Below, in pieces: positions 36,795-36,991 of a stretch of DNA of 64,000 nt. The stretch comes from Escherichia coli. Its GTDB lineage: Bacteria; Pseudomonadota; Gammaproteobacteria; Enterobacterales; Enterobacteriaceae. Positions within the stretch are counted from its first letter, which is position 1, and the number at the start of each line of letters is the position of its first letter. A program made the position numbers and the translations under genes. The notes below the pieces were generated by a model that did no database searches, was not told where the DNA came from, and worked only from the letters and a program-made list of their open reading frames with translations. Location of the stretch: the NCBI RefSeq assembly GCF_051903065.1, contig NZ_CP178438.1; one strand, written 5' to 3'.

Positions 36795-36817
36795 AAAAAA
36801 CCCCGCCGGCGGCGGGG
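36795..36817 (-). terminator. Terminator in the fliC 3' region
   Basis: ccccgccggcggcgggg palindrome followed by T-run on minus strand. Confidence 0.5.
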
Positions 36818-36849
36818 AAGCACGTTGCTGACAAATTACCATTCATGTT

Positions 36850-36885
36850 GCCGGATGCGGCGTAAACGCCTTATCCGGCCTACAA
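36850..36885. repeat. REP element
   Basis: gccggatgcggcgtaaacgccttatccggcctaca. Confidence 0.6.
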
Positions 36886-36919
36886 AAATGTGCAAATTCA
36901 ATAAATTGCAATTCACCTT

Positions 36920-36949
36920 GTAGGCCTGATAAGCGCAGCGCATCAGGCA
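36920..36949. repeat. REP element
   Basis: gtaggcctgataagcgcagcgcatcaggca. Confidence 0.6.
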
Positions 36950-36991
36950 ATTTGGCGTTGCCGTCAGTCTCAGTTAATCAGGTTACGACGA

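Follow-up and report, generated by a model that had tools for sequence, protein, structure and literature searches.

The 3′ untranslated region (3′ UTR) of fliC in the window (the whole stretch of 64,000 nt of Escherichia coli DNA that was analysed) very probably encodes, from position 36988 to position 36795 on the minus strand, an orthologue of the E. coli small RNA (sRNA) FliX. FliX has been described as an RNA of about 200 nt that is bound by Hfq, depends on sigma-28 and is processed from the fliC 3′ UTR (Melamed et al. 2023, PMC10578931, eLife 12:RP87151). As it is also annotated in the RefSeq genome of MG1655, the feature is already known; in effect, the finding re-identifies a published and RefSeq-annotated sRNA and provides no new biology by itself. 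What can be added is that the body of FliX corresponds to a complete BIME-1 repeat, that, of 5426 complete E. coli genomes, just 3501 have the long fliC allele carrying it, and that the seed appears no better conserved than the rest of the RNA. We lean towards the reading that FliX is an exapted BIME-1 rather than something long conserved behind fliC, in which case the unit would have come to lie ahead of a pre-existing terminator, the core of the seed would derive from the repeat, its insertion would be polymorphic, and other copies next to terminators, such as that of artJ, could give sibling RNAs with the same core of the seed.

The fliC gene of the window encodes a flagellin that NCBIfam places in the FliC/FljB family, with 496 bits where the cutoff is 387. 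At 432 aa, this allele is other than the H48 allele of K-12, and the NCBIfam search assigned no H type to it. The fliC-FliX primary transcript presumably starts from a sigma-28-type motif upstream of fliC (see the table), and no promoter-like site was found inside the fliC 3′ UTR. A second sigma-28-type motif (TAAACTTT-N11-GCCGATAA) lies at 38467-38493 on the plus strand, upstream of fliD and divergent from the fliC promoter. The interval 36795-36991 corresponds to the fliC 3′ UTR on the minus strand, its limits being the last T of the terminator tail and the base after the stop codon. All the features of this region (REPs, linker, seed and terminator) are on the minus strand, which is the sense strand of fliC, and they follow each other from 5′ to 3′ as a 38-nt leader, a Z1 REP, a 36-nt linker, an inverted Y REP, a 14-nt spacer, the seed and the terminator.

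Table. Positions in the window of the features of the fliC locus and of its 3′ UTR, in the order in which they are read on the minus strand.
Feature	Position	Strand	Basis or remark
fliD	38536-39951	plus	ORF list; divergent from fliC
Sigma-28-type promoter of fliC	38367..38393	minus	TAAAGGTT-N11-GACGATAA; 0 mismatches to degenerate sigma-28 pattern
fliC	36992-38290	minus	ORF list; 432-aa flagellin
fliC stop codon	36994-36992	minus	
Probable full-length FliX orthologue, 194 nt	36795..36988	minus	5′ end from primer SM044; 3′ end from MG1655 fliX annotation
BIME-1 left-end module TGAGACTGACGGCAACGCCAAAT	36950..36972	minus	Common to artJ BIME-1 and about 40 other copies
Z1-type REP GCCTGATGCGCTGCGCTTATCAGGCCTAC, first REP in the RNA	36920..36948	minus	REP pattern; BIME-1 composition per PMC3333891
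BIME-1 long (L) linker, 36 nt, AT-rich	36884..36919	minus	Rfam ES036 model match
Probable FliX-S orthologue, 105 nt	36795..36899	minus	Primer SM673; half of the linker, Y REP, spacer, seed and terminator
Y-type REP, inverted, second REP in the RNA, kept in FliX-S	36850..36883	minus	REP pattern
Spacer AACAUGAAUGGUAA, 14 nt	36836..36849	minus	4 clustered differences from K-12
Seed UUUGUCAGCAACGUG, 15 nt	36821..36835	minus	Same as K-12; primer SM644
GCA triplet altered in the published M1 mutant	36828..36826	minus	Primer SM644
Intrinsic terminator	36795..36817	minus	Stem-loop CCCCGCCGCCGGCGGGG 36817..36801, tail T6 36800..36795
fliA	35953-36672	minus	ORF list; downstream of fliC

The sequence-only reading had taken this region for the source of a reported 3′-UTR-derived sRNA, FliX, and comparison with the published coordinates bears this out. 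In the RefSeq annotation of MG1655, fliX (b4827) is an ncRNA of 195 nt at 2001912..2002106, on the fliC strand, that begins 3 nt past the fliC stop codon, and the same coordinates are given by Bar et al. 2021 (PMC8175672). The corresponding sequence in the window is found at the same place behind fliC, on the same strand and with the same terminator end, and is about 96% identical to these 195 nt, with seven substitutions, a tail that is one T shorter and no internal gaps. Four of the substitutions are in the spacer 5′ of the seed, while the terminator loop, the linker and position +2 have one each. The landmarks of FliX were placed on the window from the published oligonucleotides SM044, SM673 and SM644 (PMC10578931). 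Position +1 of FliX falls on 36988, 3 nt inside the interval first delimited by the sequence-only reading, where the window has TCGTAACC and K-12 has TTGTAACC. FliX-S, a form of about 100 nt that 'includes one of the REP sequences' (PMC10578931), would start at 36899, within the linker, where the sequence is the same as in K-12. The change at +2 is the sole one at the primer sites; apart from it, both published 5′ ends are conserved, as is the 15-nt seed, which is that of K-12. Given the K-12 data and that every sequence landmark is intact, we infer that expression and function extend to this strain.

The structured region behind fliC is real and non-random. Each degenerate REP pattern has one match in the 64 kb, with 0.00 expected in shuffles, and the Z1 and Y REPs of the fliC 3′ UTR are the sole REPs of the window. 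The terminator consists of a hairpin with seven G-C pairs and a 3-nt loop, followed by the T6 tail. A scan of the 1-kb region found two terminators where 1.0 was expected, so this signal alone is not above chance; the terminator lies exactly where fliX ends in the K-12 annotation. The hairpin and the U6 tail are presumed to form the Hfq-binding 3′ module. The initial description of the region, two REP palindromes and a distal terminator, was thus right as far as it went. It was incomplete in that the two REPs and their linker correspond to a single BIME-1, and in that the seed is located between the second REP and the terminator.

In the Bachellier/Gilson classification, BIME-1 elements (also called RIP or RIB elements) are composed of a Z1 REP, an L linker with a site for IHF, and a Y REP (Ton-Hoang et al. 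2012, PMC3333891). The fliC 3′ UTR has one Z1-type and one Y-type REP in inverted orientation, as in this definition, and its 36-nt linker aligns with that of the copy behind artJ and of about 50 other BIME-1 copies. Within the linker, ATTCAATAAATTG (36896-36908, plus strand) has one mismatch to the IHF consensus WATCAANNNNTTR, a kind of match of which 68 were found in the window and 70.8 were expected. Two motifs that flank these elements are called 'A' and 'B' in the BIME literature. Behind artJ, the BIME-1 of the 3′ UTR shares both a left flank (TGAGACTGA) and a right flank (TTTGTCAGCAA) with FliX and is directly followed by a terminator. Judged from these alignments, the two REPs, the linker and the end motifs make up one complete BIME-1 unit (left end, Z1, L, Y and right end). 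The right-end motif of the family, UUUGUCA[G/A]CAAUCUGA, contains GUCAGCAA, the core of the FliX seed, so that this core lies in the conserved right end of BIME-1 and recurs at other copies. The 3′ extension of the seed, CGUG, which pairs with CACG in rpsS, is peculiar to the fliC copy, the family consensus being UCUGA.

This description of the family rests on two samples. A scan for CGCATCCGGCA-N(8-20)-TTTGTCAGCAA in one genome per species returned 56 matches, about 50 of which are BIME-1 copies, in Escherichia and Pseudocitrobacter; they include 7 in E. albertii, 7 in E. whittamii and more than 10 in one Escherichia sp. The unit that these copies have in common is TGAGACTGATGACAAACGCAAAA - Z1 - linker - Y - aGAACAAAGCGCACTTTGTCAGCAATCTGA. 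As a safeguard against circularity, the second sample was taken from metagenomes, with the presence of the linker and of the first half of the Y REP as its sole condition. Here, TTTGTCAGCAA (with up to 2 mismatches) directly follows the REP in 31 of 49 distinct downstream flanks. When the flanks were grouped manually into loci, the right-end module was found to be kept at about 19 of about 27 loci other than fliC; the exact 8-mer GTCAGCAA is present at about 6 of those loci, and GTCAACAA is about equally common. In E. coli, a 42-nt consensus of the right end has a median of 22 matches per genome, some of which are partial and end before the seed. There is no mention of BIME or IHF in Melamed et al. 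2023 (PMC10578931), and no statement of a link between FliX and BIME-1 was found in the literature searched.

Some other features of the family were observed along the way. Escherichia sp. MOD1-EC7003 has four or more BIME-1-like units in tandem, all of them with TTTGTCAGCAA; BIME-1 is usually described as single-copy. Many BIME-1 copies are flanked by two copies of one locus-specific terminator hairpin, with 16-22 identical nt; the T-tract is present in the downstream hairpin but missing from the upstream one. In 12 of 44 other BIME-1 copies, the two flanks have at least 10 identical nt in common, and the fliC copy is without such a duplicate. These arrangements look like a duplication of the target terminator on insertion. 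As for artJ, its 3′ UTR in E. coli AS19 is laid out like FliX, with the BIME-1 followed by UUUGUCAGCAAUCUGA and then by a U-tract terminator. In principle, an RNA with the same core seed as FliX could arise from it; the searched supplementary tables of Bar et al. 2021 do not list artJ.

The distribution of the element within E. coli was assessed by comparing junction-spanning queries with 5426 complete genomes, counting matches at a coverage of at least 80%. Practically all of the genomes (5393 of 5426) could be assigned to long or short alleles. The long allele is present in about 65% of them and the element is absent in about 35%, percentages that describe a clinically biased database and not nature. 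There are three short forms, which together account for 1892 genomes. In the H2-type (862 genomes; for instance, O103:H2 12009), fliC ends in LLR* and is followed by UUUACACUUAUCGCUCAAA and the terminator. The H4-type (801 genomes), with UGGCCUUAACCUGCCUGA, follows the 350-aa flagellin of O25b:H4-ST131, and the third form (229 genomes) has UCGCCUGAAUGCCUCUCAAA. In all three, 18-20 nt separate the stop codon from the terminator, with no BIME-1 and no GUCAGCAA at all, and the terminator and the downstream fliA promoter region are the same as in the long allele. The extra segment of the long allele corresponds to one BIME-1 unit from end to end, and the H4-type short form still has UAACCUG in common with the leader of the long allele. 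As three different short forms share this arrangement, insertion of BIME-1 at fliC seems more likely than three deletions.

Because the element is polymorphic, seed included, the control of flagellin and of the S10 operon by FliX would be a strain-variable trait. The type of flagellin is not absolutely linked to the 3′ UTR allele, since one and the same FliC protein (WP_000079756.1) is annotated in E100341, which has the long allele, and in CUVET17-972, which has a short one. As the two fliC genes are distinguished by synonymous changes within their last ~30 nt, a recombination breakpoint lies just inside the 3′ end of the gene. The 3920-nt contig JAIJJM010000281.1, which is labelled as a Collinsella sp. 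MAG, has an E. coli fliC-FliX-fliA junction nearly identical to that of the window; this is probably binning contamination.

By analogy with K-12, where Hfq binding, sigma-28 dependence, processing and target regulation have been documented, the following course of events would be expected in this strain. The fliC gene would be transcribed from the sigma-28 promoter through to the intrinsic terminator (36817-36795), and the 3′ UTR would be released from the fliC mRNA by processing to give a form of ~194 nt and FliX-S, of ~105 nt, whose 5′ end would be in the linker between the two REPs. The terminator hairpin and the U-tail would then bind Hfq, and the seed (36835-36821) would pair within the coding regions of fliC and of mRNAs from the S10 operon, with CACGCUGCUGAUAAA in rpsS and UUGCUGAC in rplC. 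Finally, this pairing would reduce the expression of the targets, and flagellum synthesis would be damped late in the sigma-28 programme.

K-12 has no transcription start inside the 3′ UTR, and RNase E sites have been mapped there at FliX +9, +71 and +147 to +153 (PMC8175672). The last cluster maps to 36842..36836 in the window, directly 5′ of the seed. The spacer substitutions are at 36844, 36841, 36840 and 36838, and the two versions (GAAUGGUA here and AAAGCGCA in K-12) represent two haplotypes. Since these four clustered substitutions fall on the cleavage cluster of K-12, processing could differ in this strain. Both forms of the RNA are predicted to be stably folded relative to shuffled sequences, with -70.3 kcal/mol (z = -3.29) for the 194-nt FliX and -46.6 kcal/mol (z = -4.31) for FliX-S. 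In the predicted full-length fold, the two inverted REPs pair together as one long hairpin, and CUGACGG of the leader, which is part of the left-end module, pairs with the 5′ half of the seed. The predicted unpaired probability of this half is about 0.6-1.0 in FliX-S and 0.25 or less in the full-length RNA, while the mean for the whole seed rises from 0.45 to 0.55. Both structural predictions are weak, the second being a hint that FliX-S exposes this half of the seed better than full-length FliX does. Stronger effects have been reported for FliX-S (PMC10578931), and a more open seed half would fit with them.

The evidence that the seed is functional comes from K-12. There, RIL-seq chimeras join FliX to the coding regions of fliC and of the S10 operon, FliX co-purifies with Hfq, and its synthesis depends on fliA (PMC10578931). 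Overexpression lowers flagellin, fliC mRNA, the number of flagella and the expression of rplC, rpsS and rpsQ reporters (PMC10578931). The seed mutation M1 changes GUCAGCAACG to GUCACGUACG and, by altering the GCA triplet, abolishes binding to rpsS; binding in vitro, as seen by footprinting, is restored by compensatory mutation of seed and target (PMC10578931). The partners of the seed in rpsS and rplC are revealed by the rpsS-M1 and rplC templates (gBlocks) of the same study (PMC10578931). A chromosomal seed mutant has mild phenotypes that are opposite to those of overexpression (PMC10578931). The S10 operon is outside the 64-kb window. As for fliC itself, the best duplex predicted by RNAduplex between it and the seed is no better than with shuffled seeds (in the window, p is about 0.48; in K-12, 0.07), and the best in silico site in K-12, from +405 to +420 of fliC, has two synonymous changes in this strain.

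Sequence constraint on the seed was examined in ten long alleles chosen across the range of identity. Variable columns amount to 25 of the 194 of FliX and to 3 of the 15 of the seed, and among these alleles the seed thus does not appear visibly better conserved than the rest of FliX. The variants include GUUAGCAA in O157:H7 ATCC 35150, which would keep a G-U pair with rpsS, GCCAGCAA in strain 219, seen too in several metagenome contigs, and GCAAGGUG in E100341. This variability agrees with the mild phenotype of the K-12 mutant and with the absence of the element from many strains.

These last observations also bear on an explanation that needs no regulatory RNA, namely that a passive BIME-1 sits ahead of the fliC terminator and that any small-RNA activity is incidental. 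Such an element would serve as a barrier to 3′ exonucleases that stabilises the fliC mRNA, as IHF-binding or supercoil-insulating DNA between fliC, which is heavily transcribed, and the fliA promoter, or as a transcription attenuator; roles of REPs and BIMEs in mRNA stability, termination, IHF binding and insulation have in effect been described (PMC3333891, PMC2965389). The end-to-end match of the segment to a complete unit, both flanking motifs included, speaks for this explanation, and so do the 1892 of 5426 genomes that retain the same terminator without the element and a seed no more conserved than its surroundings. Nevertheless, it does not account for the co-immunoprecipitation with Hfq, the RIL-seq chimeras, the repression of reporters and the compensatory mutation in footprinting that have been reported in K-12 (PMC10578931), and we therefore regard it as unlikely. 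A passive role of the repeat is, in any case, compatible with an sRNA and would be an additional role rather than an alternative; only the version in which the segment is nothing but a repeat competes with FliX.

Much less probable still is that the region encodes a separate sRNA, which would be ES036 (CssrF), running across the linker on the plus strand, or the nucleoid-associated naRNA4 (CssrE), which derives from REPs. Both are suggested by Rfam, in which no FliX family exists and only REP- or BIME-based families matched. The ES036 model (RF02751) reaches 37.6 bits at 36886-36927 on the plus strand, exactly its gathering score of 37.6. However, among 8 other BIME-1 loci tested, 7 also have a linker that it matches, in each case antisense to Z1-L-Y, and the interval 36400-37400 has no promoter-like site from which the plus strand of the linker would be read. 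As the model matches BIME-1 linkers in general, reaching its threshold here identifies the repeat and not a specific gene, and ES036 appears to model BIME-1 rather than one gene. For naRNA4 (RF02564), whose gathering score is 59.5, the match on the minus strand (36830-36880) reaches only 41.9 bits, and its alignment is limited to the single REP hairpin. FliX, carried by a BIME-1, remains the preferred reading of the region.

For work on FliX or on the evolution of sRNAs, it may matter that the repeat carrying this K-12 regulator is of a mobile type and that the core of the FliX seed is common to other copies. Roughly a third of sequenced E. coli, major pathogenic lineages among them, have no FliX at this site. 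The FliX-dependent coupling of flagella and ribosomal proteins may now be tested by comparing strains with long and short alleles, as may the possibility that dispersed repeats seed families of 3′ UTR regulators.

Among known systems, the closest is K-12 FliX itself (b4827), which has the same position, strand and architecture, with an identical seed and an identical 5′ end of FliX-S. The U-tail has seven Us in K-12 and six here, and the upstream flagellin has 498 aa in K-12 and 432 aa here. With the BIME-1 family, the fliC copy has in common that it is single, that it is at the 3′ end of a transcription unit and that both end motifs are shared. In contrast to the family, its right end has diverged after GCAA (CGUGCUU where the consensus has UCUGA), and it is documented in K-12 as an Hfq-dependent small RNA. 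A comparable case is class III GlnZ, the sRNA from the glnA 3′ UTR of K-12 that has a REP insertion, as it is also a 3′ UTR-derived RNA of the Hfq type with a REP that depends on the lineage (Walling et al., bioRxiv 10.1101/2022.04.01.486790). Nevertheless, the seed of GlnZ predates the insertion and is conserved without the REP, whereas the core of the FliX seed lies inside the repeat and the alleles without the repeat are seedless. Finally, FlgO, UhpU and MotR belong to the same sigma-28 regulon and are derived from UTRs as FliX is, although they have no sequence relation to it. FlgO is, like FliX, a processed 3′ UTR of a late flagellar gene, and MotR has an effect on flagellar synthesis that is opposite to that of FliX (PMC10578931).
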